Shown: positions 4,426 to 55,156 of the stretch, piece by piece
How positions within the stretch are numbered: position 1 is the stretch's first letter
How the letters are laid out: the number at the start of each line of letters is the position of its first letter
DNA from: Escherichia phage vB_EcoM-BECP11
Strand: one strand, 5' to 3'
DNA: 64,000 nucleotides
Sequence record: MW286157.1
Notes under the pieces: model-generated
Told to the model about the DNA's origin: nothing
What the model saw: the letters and a program-made list of their open reading frames with translations, nothing else
The model's database searches: none
Made by a program: the position numbers and the translations under genes

Positions 4426-4439
4426 TTTATAAGAGATTA

Positions 4440-4463
4440 TGCTTTAATTTATTAGAGTATAAT
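4440..4463 (+). promoter_or_regulatory. middle-type promoter: MotA-box-like TGCTTTA, 11 nt, TATAAT
   Basis: tgcttta at 4440-4446 and tataat at 4458-4463 upstream of 45.2/rpbA/45. Confidence 0.5.
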
Positions 4464-4480
4464 CTCTATGGAGGAAAAAC

Positions 4481-4669
4481 ATGGAATATTCAACTGGACA
4501 GCATCTATTAACTATTCCTGAAATAAAACGATATATTCTGAGAAATAATTTTTCTAATGAAGAGCATATAGTTACTGAATCTATGCTTAAGAATGCATTT
4601 AAAGCAGAATATACGAAAATAATGTCCAACAGAAATGAAGCTTGGACTGTTACTGATTATTATGACTAA
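4481..4669 (+). CDS. 45.2: small protein 45.2
   Basis: 62 aa, ATG with SD ggagga; size and position upstream of rpbA match T4 gp45.2. Confidence 0.6.
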   Translation: MEYSTGQHLLTIPEIKRYILRNNFSNEEHIVTESMLKNAFKAEYTKIMSNRNEAWTVTDYYD

Positions 4670-7754: not shown

Positions 7755-7755
7755 T

Positions 7756-7977
7756 ATGACTGCTATAACCCCGCAAGAATACATGGCGTCTCTTAAAGAA
7801 AAATATAATCTTTCTGCAACAGAAACACTTTTTGATTTACCAGAAAATCTCCAACTAAAATTTCAGGTAGAATTTCAAAAATTAGTTCACCCAGAACAAA
7901 AACACTTTACCGCAGTGGTTAAGTCAATTAATGCAGATGGATTGACAATTTTTCACCGACAAATGGTATTAATTTAA
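7756..7977 (+). CDS. hypothetical protein, 73 aa
   Basis: ATG 7756 two nt after regA stop; followed by hairpin. Confidence 0.45.
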   Translation: MTAITPQEYMASLKEKYNLSATETLFDLPENLQLKFQVEFQKLVHPEQKHFTAVVKSINADGLTIFHRQMVLI

Positions 7978-10868: not shown

Positions 10869-10898
10869 GTTTACAAGACTGTTCTTCTGTGGTACTAT
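10869..10898 (+). promoter_or_regulatory. T4-type early promoter (-35 GTTTAC, 18 nt spacer, -10 TACTAT) with A/T-rich upstream element
   Basis: gtttac 10869-10874, tggtactat 10890-10898; near-identical copy at 38598-38627. Confidence 0.65.
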
Positions 10899-10935: not shown

Positions 10936-11172
10936 ATGAAAATTGTTATGGGATGTTTAGCAGTTTGTTTAGTTGCATTAGTAGCAGTTCCATTTGTTAG
11001 TGTTGAAAATGATACTCAACCTGTGATTGAATCTAGCACCGTTATTCACACTAATGGTAAAATATCAGTTAAAATTGATGATAATCTTCATGTGAATACA
11101 AATGGATCTTTAGGTGTGCAAATGGGTAATACCTGCATAAGCACTACTGGAGCAATTACTACTTGCATTTGA
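10936..11172 (+). CDS. small secreted protein, 78 aa, N-terminal signal peptide
   Basis: ATG 10936 after ttggagaataaa leader; hydrophobic N-terminus, Thr-rich C-terminus. Confidence 0.5.
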   Translation: MKIVMGCLAVCLVALVAVPFVSVENDTQPVIESSTVIHTNGKISVKIDDNLHVNTNGSLGVQMGNTCISTTGAITTCI

Positions 11173-11182
11173 GGAAATTATT

Positions 11183-11563
11183 ATGAAAATCGCTATTTTG
11201 GTTATTGTATTAGGTCTTACTGGTTGTGTAGCTCAAGGACCGGTAGTAAATCAGTCTGATGTAGGAAAAATTGTAAACTGTTCAAGCAAATTTTATAATC
11301 CTAATGTCAAGTGTTATAAAGAAGCTCCAAAGCAAACAGTCGAACAAATGCAGGCGAATTTTGACGAAGCTATTCGTCCAGATGAATCTGCTCAAGCATA
11401 TCGTAATTCGGATGTAATTACACGCGAAGAAAAAATTGAAAACTACTGCGCCGAGCTTTGGGCTAATTGGGCCAATAATTACCAATGGCGTACTGGTAAA
11501 AATGCTCCGATGGAGTATGTAGTGAATTCTTATAATTCATGTGTAAAAAATTTGACTAAGTGA
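11183..11563 (+). CDS. putative lipoprotein, 126 aa
   Basis: signal peptide with lipobox LTGC (MKIAILVIVLGLTGC). Confidence 0.55.
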   Translation: MKIAILVIVLGLTGCVAQGPVVNQSDVGKIVNCSSKFYNPNVKCYKEAPKQTVEQMQANFDEAIRPDESAQAYRNSDVITREEKIENYCAELWANWANNYQWRTGKNAPMEYVVNSYNSCVKNLTK

Positions 11564-16588: not shown

Positions 16589-16624
16589 TTTACAAGCTGA
16601 CAAGACTATGGTATAGTAGTCTTG
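16588..16624 (+). promoter_or_regulatory. early promoter (-35 GTTTAC 16588-16593, -10 TATAGT 16612-16617) embedded in 8 bp stem-loop caagacta/tagtcttg
   Basis: inverted repeat 16601-16608 / 16617-16624 flanks the -10 element. Confidence 0.6.
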
Positions 16625-16646
16625 TTGGTTAAATGAGGAGATTGTT

Positions 16647-17088: not shown

Positions 17089-17148
17089 CTATTTACTTTT
17101 GTTGGAAATTGATATACTATATAAACATAAACTACTGAGGAGATTATC

Positions 17149-22993: not shown

Positions 22994-23023
22994 GTTTACT
23001 TTCCTTTCTAACGATGATATGAT
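22994..23023 (+). promoter_or_regulatory. early promoter (-35 GTTTAC, -10 TATGAT)
   Basis: gtttac 22994-22999, tatgat 23018-23023 upstream of modB. Confidence 0.55.
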
Positions 23024-23049
23024 AGCTTCTGAAGTATACGGAGGCTATC

Positions 23050-23673
23050 ATGATTATTAATCCTGCAGATGTTGAACAGTTATCTATAAAAGCTGAAAAC
23101 GTTGATTTTCAATATGATATGTATAAAAAGGTCTGTGAAAAATTTACTGACTTTGAGCAGTCTGTTCTTTGGCAATGTATGGAAGCCAAAAAGAATGAAG
23201 CTCTTCATCGGCAGTTGAATAAAATCGTTAAAAAGCATTTAACTAAATCACCTTATCAGCTATATCGTGGTATATCAAAATCGACAAAAGAACTTATTAA
23301 AGATTTACAAGTTGGAGAAGTGTTTTCAACGAACAGGGTAGATTCATTTACTACTAGTTTGCACACAGCATGTGGTTTTTCTTATGTTGAGTATTTCACT
23401 GAAATAATTTTTCGCTTAAAAACTGATAAAGCTTTTAATTATTCTGACCATATCAGCGATATTATACTTTCTTCTCCTAATACTGAGTTTAAGTACACGT
23501 ATGAAGATACTGACGGGTTAGATTCAGAGCGTACTGATAACTTAATGATGATTGTGCGTGAACAAGAATGGATGATTCCAATTGGAAAGTATAAAATAAC
23601 TTCTATTTCAAAAGAAAAATTACACGATTCATTTGGAACATTTAAAGTTTATGATATTGAGGTAGTTGAATGA
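23050..23673 (+). CDS. modB: ADP-ribosyltransferase ModB
   Basis: 207 aa; R-S-EXE-type signature (LYRG..., STS region, EQEWMIPIG); paralogue of next gene. Confidence 0.7.
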   Translation: MIINPADVEQLSIKAENVDFQYDMYKKVCEKFTDFEQSVLWQCMEAKKNEALHRQLNKIVKKHLTKSPYQLYRGISKSTKELIKDLQVGEVFSTNRVDSFTTSLHTACGFSYVEYFTEIIFRLKTDKAFNYSDHISDIILSSPNTEFKYTYEDTDGLDSERTDNLMMIVREQEWMIPIGKYKITSISKEKLHDSFGTFKVYDIEVVE

Positions 23674-28187: not shown

Positions 28188-28220
28188 GTTTACTTCCTCG
28201 GTTAGTTGTGGTATTATAAC
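28188..28220 (+). promoter_or_regulatory. early promoter (-35 GTTTAC, -10 TATTAT)
   Basis: gtttac 28188-28193; tggtattataac 28209-28220. Confidence 0.55.
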
Positions 28221-28244
28221 ACCATAGCTACTGAGGATAATAAA

Positions 28245-28759: not shown

Positions 28760-29302
28760 ATGAAATTTAATTATAATCCTGAATACACACCAAATCCTGT
28801 AGATAAACCGTTTGATATGGATATAGCAAGCATGTACGGCACTCTTGTTAAACCATTAGAAATTAAGGAAACATTTATGACTGCTCGGACCATCGAAACT
28901 GGCAAAACCTACAAACTGGTTGAAACTGAAATTAAAACTGCTGAATTAAATTTGGGTTATAAAGCATTGACTAGTGTTTTTGGTGAAGGCGAGTTTGTGG
29001 TTAAAAGCTTTTCAAAAAGTAACTGGTATGATAAAAATAAAGCTTACGTGATTCGAGCACATCGCTTAGATAATGATGAAGTAATTAAAACTATAGTCTT
29101 TGAAGCAGAGCTTATCCTCTTTCAAGAATGCGATCCTACTGACCTTTTAACTCGTGCGGTAGCTATCAAGACTCCATTTATTTCGGTCTGTGGTTGGGTA
29201 ACAGACCAGTGGGTAGAAGACGGTGTTGAACTTCTGAACGTTGTTCATGCAGGTGATTTTAGTGTAGTACCTCGTAGTGCGGTGGTAGCTATTTTAAATT
29301 AA
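28760..29302 (+). CDS. hypothetical protein, 180 aa, paralogue A
   Basis: C-terminal TDQWVEDGVELLNVVHAGDFSVVP shared with ORF 29379-29876. Confidence 0.5.
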   Translation: MKFNYNPEYTPNPVDKPFDMDIASMYGTLVKPLEIKETFMTARTIETGKTYKLVETEIKTAELNLGYKALTSVFGEGEFVVKSFSKSNWYDKNKAYVIRAHRLDNDEVIKTIVFEAELILFQECDPTDLLTRAVAIKTPFISVCGWVTDQWVEDGVELLNVVHAGDFSVVPRSAVVAILN

Positions 29303-29304
29303 TA

Positions 29305-29340
29305 GTTTACAAACTCTTGGGACCAGAGTATAATGGTCCC
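29305..29340 (+). promoter_or_regulatory. early promoter (-35 GTTTAC 29305-29310, -10 TATAAT 29329-29334) inside stem-loop gggacca/tggtccc
   Basis: 7 bp inverted repeat 29319-29325 / 29334-29340 flanks -10. Confidence 0.65.
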
Positions 29341-29378
29341 GTGGAGTATAAAATCTTTTTAACAAGTGAGAGATAACT

Positions 29379-29876
29379 ATGATTATTAATATTGGTGAAA
29401 TTGCTCGTGTATCTGATAAATCCCGTTCTAAAGCAGCAGGAAAATTGGTAGAAGTTGTAAGCATTCAGCTTAAACATGGTGTTAAAGATGAAGATTCTGA
29501 AGTAAAAGTGCGTATCATTCCTAAAGATGGAAAGTCTAAACCTCAGTTTGGCTATGTTCGTGCGAAATTTCTTGAATCTGCGTTTTTGAAAGCTGTTCCT
29601 GCTAAAGGAATTGAAACGATTGATACTTCGCATGTAGGTGTAGACTTTAAGTGGAAACTCGGTCAGGCTATTAAGTTCGTTGCTCCTTATGAATTCGAAT
29701 TTACTGAAGATGAGGAAGGGGTTGTTCAAAAACACCGTACTCGTGCTATGTGCGCATACATTACTGATCAGTGGGTAGAAGACGGTGTTAAGCTGTACAA
29801 CGCGGTATATTTAGGAACATACAAAGTCATTCCTGAAAGTTGGATTAAACACTATAGCAAAGCTCGCTATGCATAA
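29379..29876 (+). CDS. hypothetical protein, 165 aa, paralogue B
   Basis: C-terminal TDQWVEDGVKLYNAVYLGTYKVIP; identical 21 nt core cagtgggtagaagacggtgtt at 29207 and 29769. Confidence 0.5.
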   Translation: MIINIGEIARVSDKSRSKAAGKLVEVVSIQLKHGVKDEDSEVKVRIIPKDGKSKPQFGYVRAKFLESAFLKAVPAKGIETIDTSHVGVDFKWKLGQAIKFVAPYEFEFTEDEEGVVQKHRTRAMCAYITDQWVEDGVKLYNAVYLGTYKVIPESWIKHYSKARYA

Positions 29877-29906
29877 AGTTTAAAAATTTTTCATAAAACT
29901 ATATAC

Positions 29907-29949
29907 ATCAGTAGTTGATTATGGTACTATATCAATATCAACTACTGAT
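29907..29949 (+). repeat. 13 bp perfect inverted repeat atcagtagttgat / atcaactactgat enclosing promoter -10 TACTAT
   Basis: arms at 29907-29919 and 29937-29949; -10 at 29925-29930. Confidence 0.8.
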
Positions 29950-29973
29950 ACAGAAAATAACTTGGAGAATAAA

Positions 29974-30243
29974 ATGGAAAACTTAATTATCATCGAGCAA
30001 TCTTTCAACGATTATGGTATGGCTTACGGTTATCGTGCGATAATGGAAGATTCTCGTGGATGTGTTATCGATATTGCTGAATGTAAAGATTTACTGCAGC
30101 TTTTGAAGATTGTTCGCAAAAATTGGGATTGTGAAAACATTAAAGCTCGTGTTGTAACGGAAGAAGAAACTGTTTTTCATGATGTAAAATTCGCTAAAGG
30201 TGCTGCTACTCTTCTGAAACGCATCGCTCCACTGTTCAATTAA
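29974..30243 (+). CDS. hypothetical protein, 89 aa
   Basis: ATG 29974 after ttggagaataaa leader identical to that at 10924-10935. Confidence 0.45.
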   Translation: MENLIIIEQSFNDYGMAYGYRAIMEDSRGCVIDIAECKDLLQLLKIVRKNWDCENIKARVVTEEETVFHDVKFAKGAATLLKRIAPLFN

Positions 30244-31072: not shown

Positions 31073-31444
31073 ATGTTTAAAATCGGTAAGAAATATCGCA
31101 TTTGTGAAGGTGAAGAACAGAAATATCTACTTTCTGCTAGTAATAGGAATAGTTCTATTAATGCTGTAATATCTACAAGCGAATTTATCGTTGAAGATAT
31201 GAAAGGTCATAATGTTACGATGATTAGTACAGCGTCTGGAAATAACGGAAAAATTCTTCACAGTATGCAGAGTAATGTTCTAATTTATGATGAAGAATTT
31301 GACTTCTTCAAAGAAGTTTCCGAAGATTTTGATTTTGAATGTACCATTACTATGAAATCTGGTGACCCTCTTTCTTTTACAGTTAAAGATGAAAGAAGCC
31401 GCTTGAGAATTATTAGTCTTCTTCAAGCCATTAAATTTGAGTGA
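31073..31444 (+). CDS. hypothetical protein, 123 aa
   Basis: ATG 31073, 2 nt after upstream stop. Confidence 0.5.
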   Translation: MFKIGKKYRICEGEEQKYLLSASNRNSSINAVISTSEFIVEDMKGHNVTMISTASGNNGKILHSMQSNVLIYDEEFDFFKEVSEDFDFECTITMKSGDPLSFTVKDERSRLRIISLLQAIKFE

Positions 31445-31735: not shown

Positions 31736-31779
31736 GATTGCCGGAGTATAATATTCCCGAAACCAAACGAGGATAAGTG

Positions 31780-33597
31780 ATGATTAAGAATGAAATTAAA
31801 ATTCTGAGCGATATTGAACATATCAAAAAGCGTAGTGGCATGTACATTGGCTCTTCTGCTAATGAAATGCATGAGCGCTTTCTGTTTGGTAAATGGGAAA
31901 GTGTTCAGTATGTACCTGGTCTTGTTAAGCTTATTGATGAAATTATCGATAACTCAGTCGATGAAGGTATTCGTACTAAATTTAAGTTCGCAAATAAAAT
32001 TAATGTTACCATTAAAAATAATCAGGTGACAGTTGAAGATAACGGTCGCGGTATTCCACAAGCGATGGTTAAAACACCTACTGGTGAAGAAATTCCTGGT
32101 CCTGTTGCTGCGTGGACTATTCCAAAAGCAGGTGGTAACTTTGGTGATGATAAAGAACGTGTCACCGGTGGTATGAATGGTGTTGGTTCTAGTTTAACTA
32201 ACATTTTTTCTGTGATGTTTGTCGGTGAAACTGGCGATGGTCAAAATAATATTGTAGTTCGTTGTTCAAATGGCATGGAAAATAAATCATGGGAAACTAT
32301 TCCAGGAAAATGGAAAGGAACTCGTGTTACTTTCATTCCTGATTTTATGTCATTTGAAACTAATGAGCTGTCCCAAGTTTATCTTGACATTACACTAGAT
32401 CGTCTTCAGACACTTGCTGTTGTTTATCCTGATATTCAATTTACTTTTAATGGTAAAAAGGTTCAGGGCAATTTTAAGAAATATGCACGGCAGTATGATG
32501 AACATGCTATTGTTCAAGAACAAGAAAATTGTTCTATTGCGGTTGGTCGTTCACCTGATGGTTTTCGTCAATTAACTTATGTGAATAACATTCACACTAA
32601 GAATGGTGGCCATCACATTGACTGTGTTATGGATGATATTTGTGAAGACCTTATTCCACAAATCAAACGTAAGTTCAAAATTGATGTAACTAAAGCACGT
32701 GTCAAAGAATGTTTGACTATCGTTATGTTTGTTCGTGATATGAAAAACATGCGATTTGATTCTCAAACTAAAGAACGACTTACTTCTCCTTTTGGTGAAA
32801 TTCGTAGTCATATTCAACTTGATGCTAAAAAGATTTCACGCGCTATTCTAAATAATGAAGCAATTTTAATGCCGATTATTGAAGCTGCTTTAGCACGTAA
32901 ATTAGCAGCAGAAAAAGCAGCAGAAACTAAAGCAGCTAAAAAGGCTTCTAAAGCTAAGGTTCATAAACATATCAAAGCGAATCTTTGCGGTAAAGATGCT
33001 GACACTACTCTTTTCTTGACTGAGGGTGATTCTGCTATCGGATATCTTATTGATGTTCGTGATAAAGAACTTCATGGTGGTTATCCATTGCGTGGTAAAG
33101 TTCTCAACAGTTGGGGTATGTCATATGCTGATATGCTTAAAAACAAAGAACTATTTGATATTTGCGCAATCACTGGATTAGTTCTTGGTGAAAAAGCTGA
33201 AAACTTGAATTATCATAATATTGCTATTATGACCGATGCTGACCATGATGGTTTAGGAAGCATTTATCCTTCTCTGCTCGGATTTTTTAGTAATTGGCCA
33301 GAACTGTTTGAACAAGGAAGAATTCGCTTTGTCAAAACTCCTGTAATCATCGCTCAGGTCGGTAAAAAACAAGAATGGTTTTATACAGTCGCTGAATATG
33401 AGAGTGCCAAAGATGCTCTACCTAAACATAGCATCCGTTATATTAAGGGACTTGGCTCTTTGGAAAAATCTGAATATCGTGAGATGATTCAAAACCCAGT
33501 ATATGATGTTGTTAAACTTCCTGAGAACTGGAAAGAGCTTTTTGAAATGCTCATGGGAGATAATGCTGACCTTCGTAAAGAATGGATGAGCCAGTAG
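31780..33597 (+). CDS. 39: topoisomerase II large subunit gp39 (GyrB-like), single uninterrupted gene
   Basis: 605 aa; ATPase and Toprim regions in one ORF, so no separate gene 60. Confidence 0.9.
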   Translation: MIKNEIKILSDIEHIKKRSGMYIGSSANEMHERFLFGKWESVQYVPGLVKLIDEIIDNSVDEGIRTKFKFANKINVTIKNNQVTVEDNGRGIPQAMVKTPTGEEIPGPVAAWTIPKAGGNFGDDKERVTGGMNGVGSSLTNIFSVMFVGETGDGQNNIVVRCSNGMENKSWETIPGKWKGTRVTFIPDFMSFETNELSQVYLDITLDRLQTLAVVYPDIQFTFNGKKVQGNFKKYARQYDEHAIVQEQENCSIAVGRSPDGFRQLTYVNNIHTKNGGHHIDCVMDDICEDLIPQIKRKFKIDVTKARVKECLTIVMFVRDMKNMRFDSQTKERLTSPFGEIRSHIQLDAKKISRAILNNEAILMPIIEAALARKLAAEKAAETKAAKKASKAKVHKHIKANLCGKDADTTLFLTEGDSAIGYLIDVRDKELHGGYPLRGKVLNSWGMSYADMLKNKELFDICAITGLVLGEKAENLNYHNIAIMTDADHDGLGSIYPSLLGFFSNWPELFEQGRIRFVKTPVIIAQVGKKQEWFYTVAEYESAKDALPKHSIRYIKGLGSLEKSEYREMIQNPVYDVVKLPENWKELFEMLMGDNADLRKEWMSQ

Positions 33598-38597: not shown

Positions 38598-38627
38598 GTT
38601 TACAAGACTGTTCTTCCGTGGTACTAT
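38598..38627 (+). promoter_or_regulatory. early promoter, near-identical copy of the one at 10869-10898
   Basis: gtttacaagactgttcttccgtggtactat differs by one base from 10869-10898. Confidence 0.65.
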
Positions 38628-38655
38628 TACCCTATCAACTACGGAGGAACAGAAA

Positions 38656-38769
38656 ATGAAAAAGATTGTTAAAGCTATATGGAATGTAGTTATAATACTA
38701 ATAGTTTTGAGTATATTCCCAATCGTTTTAATGATTGATGTATTAAACGCTTACTTTGGATTTATGTGA
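38656..38769 (+). CDS. 37 aa hydrophobic micro-protein
   Basis: SD ggaggaac then ATG 38656. Confidence 0.35.
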   Translation: MKKIVKAIWNVVIILIVLSIFPIVLMIDVLNAYFGFM

Positions 38770-41680: not shown

Positions 41681-41707
41681 AGGGAGAGCCTCGGCTCTCC
41701 CTTTTTT
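41681..41707 (+). terminator. rho-independent terminator agggagagcc-tc-ggctctccct plus T6
   Basis: strong GC stem followed by tttttt. Confidence 0.75.
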
Positions 41708-41733
41708 ATTTCAAAAATTTTTTTCACAAAACG

Positions 41734-41763
41734 GTTTACAACCAAAGCATACTGTGGTACTAT
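41734..41763 (+). promoter_or_regulatory. early promoter (-35 GTTTAC, -10 TACTAT) with shared leader caactatcaactactgatacag
   Basis: gtttac 41734-41739, tactat 41758-41763; leader identical to 10899-10919. Confidence 0.65.
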
Positions 41764-55126: not shown

Positions 55127-55156
55127 GTTTACTTTAAGATTTGGATGGTATATAAT
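55127..55156 (+). promoter_or_regulatory. early promoter (-35 GTTTAC, -10 TATAAT)
   Basis: gtttac 55127-55132, tataat 55151-55156, upstream of rnh; divergent from gene 34 late promoter. Confidence 0.6.

Follow-up and report, generated by a model that had tools for sequence, protein, structure and literature searches.

Early promoters nested within predicted sense-strand RNA hairpins at motB and dmd of a T4-like Escherichia phage

The promoter and stem-loop cassettes of T4-type phages known as PeSLs combine an early promoter of sigma70 type and a stem-loop that overlaps it, in the interval from a stop codon to the ribosome-binding site that follows (PMC2839356, PMC4122927). They are repeated at many loci and associated with variable early regions (Arbiol et al. 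2010, PMC2839356; Comeau et al. 2014, PMC4122927). The stems of RB49 and phi1 pair a G-run with a C-run and are strong terminators in assays (PMC2839356), and those of PST lie just upstream of the promoter (Comeau 2014, PMC4122927). In T4 a related design is known: the genes e, soc, 49 and I-TevI have a late promoter (TATAAATA) in the DNA for the 5' strand of an inhibitory helix (PMC3014915). A rho-independent terminator followed in tandem by a promoter likewise puts a hairpin in the intergenic space where one unit ends and the next begins.

The window analyzed here is a stretch of 64,000 nucleotides from Escherichia phage vB_EcoM-BECP11 (MW286157.1), a Tequatrovirus (T4-like coliphage) whose best match, at 97%, is Escherichia phage MLF4; its orientation is reversed relative to the T4 reference. 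Roughly 750 Tevenvirinae records match the motB locus. Inverted repeats enclosing the -10 element of an early promoter had been noted at two sites flanking motB and at a third between gene 41 and dmd. The ORF map of the motB locus contains:

28760-29302, motB.1
29379-29876, motB
29962-30243 (also listed as 29974-30243), an 89/93-aa ORF downstream of motB

The 93-aa ORF is followed by cef, goF, 39.2 and gene 39. motB.1 and motB are partial paralogues with a common C-terminal block of 32 aa (53% identity) that carries a DQWVEDGV motif. The promoters and repeats at the three sites are as follows:

29306..29334, + strand, motB early promoter: -35 TTTACA at 29306-29311, 17-nt spacer, -10 TATAAT at 29329-29334
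29313..29347, + strand, predicted motB RNA hairpin: core arms 29319-29325/29334-29340, stem extended by G·U pairs
29902..29930, + strand, predicted early promoter downstream of motB: TATACA at 29902-29907, 17-nt spacer, tgGTACTAT at 29922-29930
29907..29949, + strand, 13-bp perfect repeat: 5' arm in the spacer, 3' arm equal to the leader ATCAACTACTGAT, which would begin at about +1
16589..16617, + strand, gene 41-dmd early promoter: TTTACA at 16589-16594, tgGTATAGT at 16610-16617, -10 at 16612-16617
16595..16630, + strand, predicted dmd RNA hairpin: 9-bp core 16600-16608/16617-16625, extended by G·U to 15 pairs

All three repeats are present around a -10 element, as the original prediction had it. 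The 7-bp motB repeat (GGGACCA/TGGTCCC, 29319-29340) is perfect and encloses TATAAT, while the equally perfect 13-bp repeat (ATCAGTAGTTGAT/ATCAACTACTGAT, 29907-29919/29937-29949, 17-nt loop) encloses tgGTACTAT. The 9-bp dmd repeat (ACAAGACTA/TAGTCTTGT) was predicted at 16601-16624; its actual span is 16600-16625, one base off. The motB promoter matches the consensus at 11 of 12 positions, is the same in T4, is annotated as a predicted early promoter in fPS-65, and has a 5' end seen by primer extension in T4 (PMC1702504). This is the only documented use among the three promoters. The dmd promoter has the same sequence in T4 and RB3. The promoter at 29902 has a degenerate -35-like element and an extended -10 (TG), and it aligns with the promoters at 10870, 41735 and 58428 from the upstream A/T block through the leader; the syntenic site in Dhakavirus has TATACA as well. 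Promoter 29902 is predicted only; a search for an experimental start site gave none, and the fPS-65 annotators called no promoter here. Both flanks of motB are identical in sequence in T4, and T4 GenBank records contain no regulatory features at these sites.

At the level of sequence the comparison with promoter-stem-loop cassettes of T4-type genomes holds. The promoters read TTTACA-N17-TATAAT (29306), TTTACA-N17-TATAGT (16589) and TATACA-N17-TACTAT with TG (29902, weaker -35), fitting the T4/PST consensus TTTACW-N17-TAYWAT (Comeau 2014, PMC4122927). Each element has an A/T-rich block upstream of the -35 and lies between the upstream stop codon and the next Shine-Dalgarno sequence and start. 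The hairpins, stable stem-loops of -19 to -20 kcal/mol, are 5-30 nt past that stop codon, and the motif is repeated across loci. There are also differences from the described PeSLs. The stems are of mixed sequence without a T-run, unlike the G-run/C-run stems of RB49 and phi1, and they enclose the -10 instead of lying just upstream as in PST. At this level the elements are PeSLs of the subclass in which stem and -10 overlap. Promoter-nested hairpin cassettes are already known as PeSLs, including for T4/PST, and identical copies are found in T4; what is reported here confirms such cassettes within the T4 genus proper. It goes modestly beyond the PeSL papers in the covariation of the sense-strand RNA and in early promoters predicted to hide a ribosome-binding site.

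Short inverted repeats could be chance matches in AT-rich promoter DNA. Eighteen early promoters are listed on the + strand of the window, and the longest perfect repeat enclosing the -10 is 13, 9 and 7 bp in the flagged promoters, 6 bp in two others and just 3-5 bp in the remaining 13. As these 13 of 18 are without such a hairpin, it is a property of a subset and is not needed for promoter function. Among random 54-nt windows, 3.9% contain a perfect -10-enclosing repeat of at least 7 bp, 0.56% one of at least 9 bp and 0.02% one of 13 bp. The 7-bp motB repeat by itself, with a counterpart in about 4% of random windows, is thus marginal against chance, and 6-bp repeats such as that at 55128 have z about 0; the 55128 repeat (fold z +0.2) was dropped. 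When the spacer and downstream bases of the 18 promoters were shuffled, however, repeats of at least 7 bp (3/18 promoters) were expected 0.5 times (P=0.015) and those of at least 9 bp (2/18) 0.03 times (P=0.0005). Among perfect repeats in the 64 kb with loops of up to 20 nt, the 13-bp one is the longest. Sense folds of 45 nt at or below -18 kcal/mol, with G·U allowed, are found near 7 of the 18 promoters against 2.8% of random neighbourhoods (binomial, about 4e-7). The -10 is within the hairpin in six of these seven; the seventh (41681-41702) is a canonical terminator just 5' of its promoter. In QL01 (Dhakavirus) the enrichment is weaker, with 6/13 promoters at or below -14 against 15.8%. A strict promoter regular expression with a Shine-Dalgarno filter failed to recover the promoters of motB and dmd; the statistics it gave for T4 and RB3 were left out. 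Together with fold z values of -4.4 to -6.2 and the covariation given below, these tests largely refute the chance explanation, which we regard as very improbable. The feature is real and under selection.

The three elements fold more strongly as sense than as antisense RNA: -19.0 kcal/mol (z -4.4) against -15.1 at motB, -18.9 (z -6.2) against -10.1 at dmd, and -20.2 (z -5.9) against -18.0 at the 13-bp element. The difference arises because G·U pairs lengthen the stems in the sense strand only. Eight distinct variants of the motB stem were compared, taken from T4, fPS-65, IMG/VR contigs, QL01 and IME08. The IMG/VR search with MotB returned 7 loci only, which limits this sample, and the relatives are few and partly non-independent. 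Pairs were counted by script, as the gap register of the MAFFT alignment clashed with the stem. All 64 cells (8 variants by 8 pairs) are Watson-Crick or G·U, with no A·C or other mismatch, and every one-sided change is a sense-strand wobble. Comparison of Tequatrovirus (GGGACCA/TGGTCCC) with Dhakavirus (GAGAGCCA/TGGCTCTC) shows four pairs in which both partners are altered. Beyond the core, in the extension of the stem, pairing is weaker and conservation lower. In the dmd stem, U in the window is C in T4, turning a G·U pair into G-C. Asymmetry and covariation add evidence that the structures are selected as sense-strand RNA and are more than DNA palindromes.

The same data bear on an action at the level of DNA. 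Here a dimeric regulator would bind the repeats over the -10, or the repeats would be cruciform or recombination hot spots and in that way promote the exchange of modules. Perfect, palindrome-like 13-bp arms that straddle the -10 would suit either role, and recombination at these motifs was proposed in the PeSL papers (PMC2839356, PMC4122927). The 13-bp cassette lies between breakpoints at 29870 and 29981, and in RB3 an insertion adjoins the promoter at 17092. Yet arm sequences vary among promoters, so that a single protein would be unable to read them all, and between genera the arms covary instead of staying fixed. One-sided changes that are all G·U in the sense strand, with antisense folds that collapse, point to RNA, and none of the breakpoints relative to T4 and RB3 in positions 1-36,000 falls inside a repeat. 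We consider a DNA-level role improbable.

Hairpins are found at the matching Dhakavirus positions: position is kept and sequence changed for the motB, motB-downstream, motB.2 and modB elements. The 13-bp repeat itself does not vary among the 9 Tequatrovirus sequences examined and therefore offers no covariation evidence of its own. Promoter 29902 is a member of a dispersed promoter repeat of about 75 nt with copies at 10870 and 41735. The 3' arm of the 13-bp repeat is the conserved leader of that family (10905, 41770), and a complementary spacer is present only at 29902. A templated replication error (quasi-palindrome, strand-switch) could have copied the complement of the pre-existing leader ATCAACTACTGAT into a freely variable spacer, leaving a neutral by-product; in its favour, the repeat is perfect and unvaried in close relatives. 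However, the syntenic Dhakavirus promoter (TATACA-N17-TAYTAT) is within a hairpin of different sequence, a 6-7-bp stem of TAGGGTA/TACCCTA, and contig L006 retains a hairpin at the 13-bp-repeat site with the promoter absent. Five other promoters share the design, with covariation. We give this origin of the 13-bp repeat little credence.

Transcription from a sigma70 promoter starts about 7 nt past the -10. In the arrangement we propose, a T4-type sigma70 early promoter is nested within a sense-strand RNA hairpin: the spacer would encode the 5' arm, the -10 would be part of the loop, and the 3' arm would come from the discriminator together with the first bases of the transcript. With a start about 7 nt after the -10, and hence past the 5' arm, the promoter's own mRNA would carry the 3' arm only and remain unfolded. 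Since the 5' arm is in the promoter spacer, folding would be limited to read-through transcripts from upstream promoters, and the hairpin would mark and act on read-through RNA only. Promoter, hairpin and leader would form a cassette of 40-100 nt that recurs at several loci and could be moved by recombination. A promoter-nested hairpin that acts on read-through RNA, within a movable PeSL-type cassette, is our main reading, to which we assign a probability of roughly 65%.

Assuming such a start, the design resembles that of e, soc, 49 and I-TevI, with the promoter in the DNA for the 5' strand; long upstream transcripts would fold and the proximal one would not. The promoters here are of early type, whereas those are late. 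The helix in those genes hides the ribosome-binding site. That site is outside the stem and unpaired in all three flagged elements (3-10 nt outside in the dmd and 13-bp elements), and it is paired in three sister elements:

28195..28237, + strand, predicted motB.2 promoter hairpin: TTTACT at 28189-28194, TATTAT at 28212-28217; 17 pairs; fold -23.7 against -13.7 antisense
23014..23057, + strand, predicted modB promoter hairpin: -10 TATGAT at 23018-23023 within the 5' arm; fold about -20 against -10 to -14 antisense
38608..38652, + strand, predicted hairpin of promoter 38599: spacer pairs with leader; fold -21.6 against -15.0 antisense

The 3' arm of the motB.2 hairpin contains the Shine-Dalgarno sequence GAGGA (28233-28237), that of modB pairs GGAGG (23040-23044) and the ATG (23050-23052), and the leader pairing of promoter 38599 includes GGAGG (38643-38647), with the ATG at 38656. 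Dhakavirus motB.2 has the same architecture in different sequence (UCUCCUCAUG/CAUGAGGAGA), and QL01 modB has an analogous hairpin (AUGACCUCU/GGAGGUCAU). On the predicted folds, motB.2, modB and 38599 would use the same design to conceal the ribosome-binding site on read-through RNA only.

Alternatively, the hairpins could mainly sort transcripts for translation or RegB attack and not end the upstream RNA. The stem on read-through RNA would mask a RegB site (the motB GGAG at 29343-29346) or a ribosome-binding site, and each gene would be expressed and turned over solely through the transcript of its own promoter. Consistent with this, a Shine-Dalgarno sequence or AUG is in the 3' arm at motB.2, modB and 38599, and the motB GGAG is paired in the extended stem. 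Both motB and motB.2 are RegB substrates, RegB cuts motB at GGAG, and structure inhibits RegB (PMC1702504); e, soc, 49 and I-TevI supply a precedent (PMC3014915). Against it, the stems of the dmd and 13-bp elements do not include the ribosome-binding site, the motB GGAG is 35 nt from the start codon, and the extension pairing at motB, being weaker and less conserved than the core, is where that GGAG is held. Sorting as the main function seems to us rather unlikely, though less so than the DNA-level and templated-error explanations.

Because the stems of the three flagged elements leave the ribosome-binding site free, these elements need some other way of acting on read-through RNA. Under the main reading, the upstream message would most probably be terminated, attenuated or protected at its 3' end by the flagged hairpins, for instance following a RegB cut at GGAG. 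Classical intrinsic termination is not predicted, as the hairpins lack a T-run: the terminator scan called none of the three, and the tails after the stems (GTGGAGTATA, ACAGAAAATA and TGGTTAAATG) do not resemble that of a rho-independent terminator. In a terminator-promoter pair the two parts are in tandem and a T-run is present, while here hairpin and promoter overlap. One such pair of the canonical kind is in the window:

41681..41763, + strand, terminator and promoter composite: terminator AGGGAGAGC ctcg GCTCTCCCT with T-run at 41681-41710, early promoter at 41735-41763

Canonical versions are also located at sites equivalent to the hairpins, downstream of gene 41 in Dhakavirus and at 55.3|55.2 (upstream of 55.2) in T4, and are suggestive of a function in ending upstream RNA. 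The 3' arm of the motB hairpin contains the GGAG at 29343-29346, a RegB-type site with an A-rich run after it. The stem is directly followed by GGAGUAUAAAAUC, which fits the motB RegB site as published, where an A-rich stretch lies 3' of a GGAG (PMC1702504). A RegB cut at this GGAG would leave the hairpin as the end of the upstream RNA. Proximity to the stop codon, the terminators of relatives and the RegB-type site point to 3'-end formation or protection as the probable role. The Rfam search gave no match at the gathering score and a single chance-level match (E 0.87). A literature search found no genome-wide start-site or 3'-end map of T4, and the MotB paper does not mention the hairpins.

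A wider interpretation would be a general early device of T4-like phages, in which the spacer is selected to pair with its own leader and transcripts are told apart by origin. We hold this tentatively and lean against it, if less than against sorting as the main function. If true, read-through RNA would be ended, 3'-protected after RegB or translationally silenced, and promoter-started RNA would be open, so that early promoters would follow the logic known from the late promoters of e, soc, 49 and I-TevI. Such a device would explain how closely packed early units in tandem are kept insulated from one another, at the level of RNA, without canonical terminators. Promoter spacers would then carry regulatory information, which would be relevant to the annotation and engineering of T4-like therapeutic phages.

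Mobility of the elements, as originally predicted, has some support from one cassette. The 37-nt motB cassette TAGTTTACAAACTCTTGGGACCAGAGTATAATGGTCC is identical upstream of Tequatrovirus motB and upstream of an unrelated 109-aa 55.2-like ORF in Dhakavirus; the 55.2-side copies are found in QL01 and five IMG/VR contigs of Dhakavirus type, in all of which the stem at motB itself is a different one. This is direct evidence that one cassette can stand in two gene contexts. The 13-bp element is present in a single copy, at a fixed place downstream of motB. Where 55.3 meets 55.2, QL01 (L013 39505-39560) carries the motB promoter-hairpin cassette and T4 (L026 700-760) a terminator-like hairpin, AGGGCttcgGCCTTTTT, with no promoter; in both, a RegB-type site of GGAU with an A-rich run is next.

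The elements had further been expected to mark the borders of paralogue-rich accessory blocks, and this expectation is not generally supported. About 25 synteny breakpoints relative to T4 and RB3 were compared in window positions 1-36,000, and none is inside a repeat. About 5 of the 25 are within 60 nt of a promoter element, a figure that is confounded because both features favour gene junctions. For two of the three flagged elements there is no breakpoint within 80 nt relative to T4 and RB3: none is near the dmd element, and the closest to the motB element is 116 nt upstream, within motB.1. The 13-bp element alone has adjoining breakpoints, 29870 in RB3 and 29981 in T4. PeSLs are associated with variable regions, whereas most breakpoints here are away from the elements, which leaves the border claim weak. 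A role of the elements in recombination is plausible and, at this locus, weakly supported.

Exchange between cassettes was considered for the T4 deletion of 29982-30181 and rejected, as the joint is an AAAA microhomology within the ORF. The 29974-30243 ORF is intact in the window, L001 and RB3, and has an internal deletion of 197-200 bp with the AAAA microhomology joint in T4, fPS-65 and L002-L005; the L005 junction is one A shorter. The deletion leaves an unannotated gap of 170 bp in the motB-cef interval of T4. Upstream, the N-terminal two thirds of motB.1 (28781-29184) are swapped for unrelated sequence in T4, L003 and L004. Between 39.2 and 39.1, a 123-aa ORF (31073-31444) is shared with RB3 and fPS-65 and missing from T4 and L001; its borders are gene junctions without an early promoter. 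Gene 39 (31777-33597) is one 606-aa ORF in the window and likewise in RB3; in T4, mobA/60.1/60 is inserted at the corresponding position (breakpoint 33197/33249). The window also has two segments, 10949-11183 and 7755-7973, each about 220-230 bp long, that are missing from both T4 and RB3. The former begins about 50 nt past the -10 of promoter 10870, which places it relative to that promoter where the T4 deletion lies relative to the 13-bp element.

A further hairpin, AGAGATTAT/ATAATCTCT at 4432-4467, is located between genes 46 and 45.2 and folds at -19.3 in the sense strand against -9.1 in the antisense. It encloses an apparent MotA-type middle promoter (ATGCTTTAA, 12 nt, TATAAT), with GGAGG and the ATG at 4481 next, and is a possible middle-promoter counterpart, or 'PmSL'.
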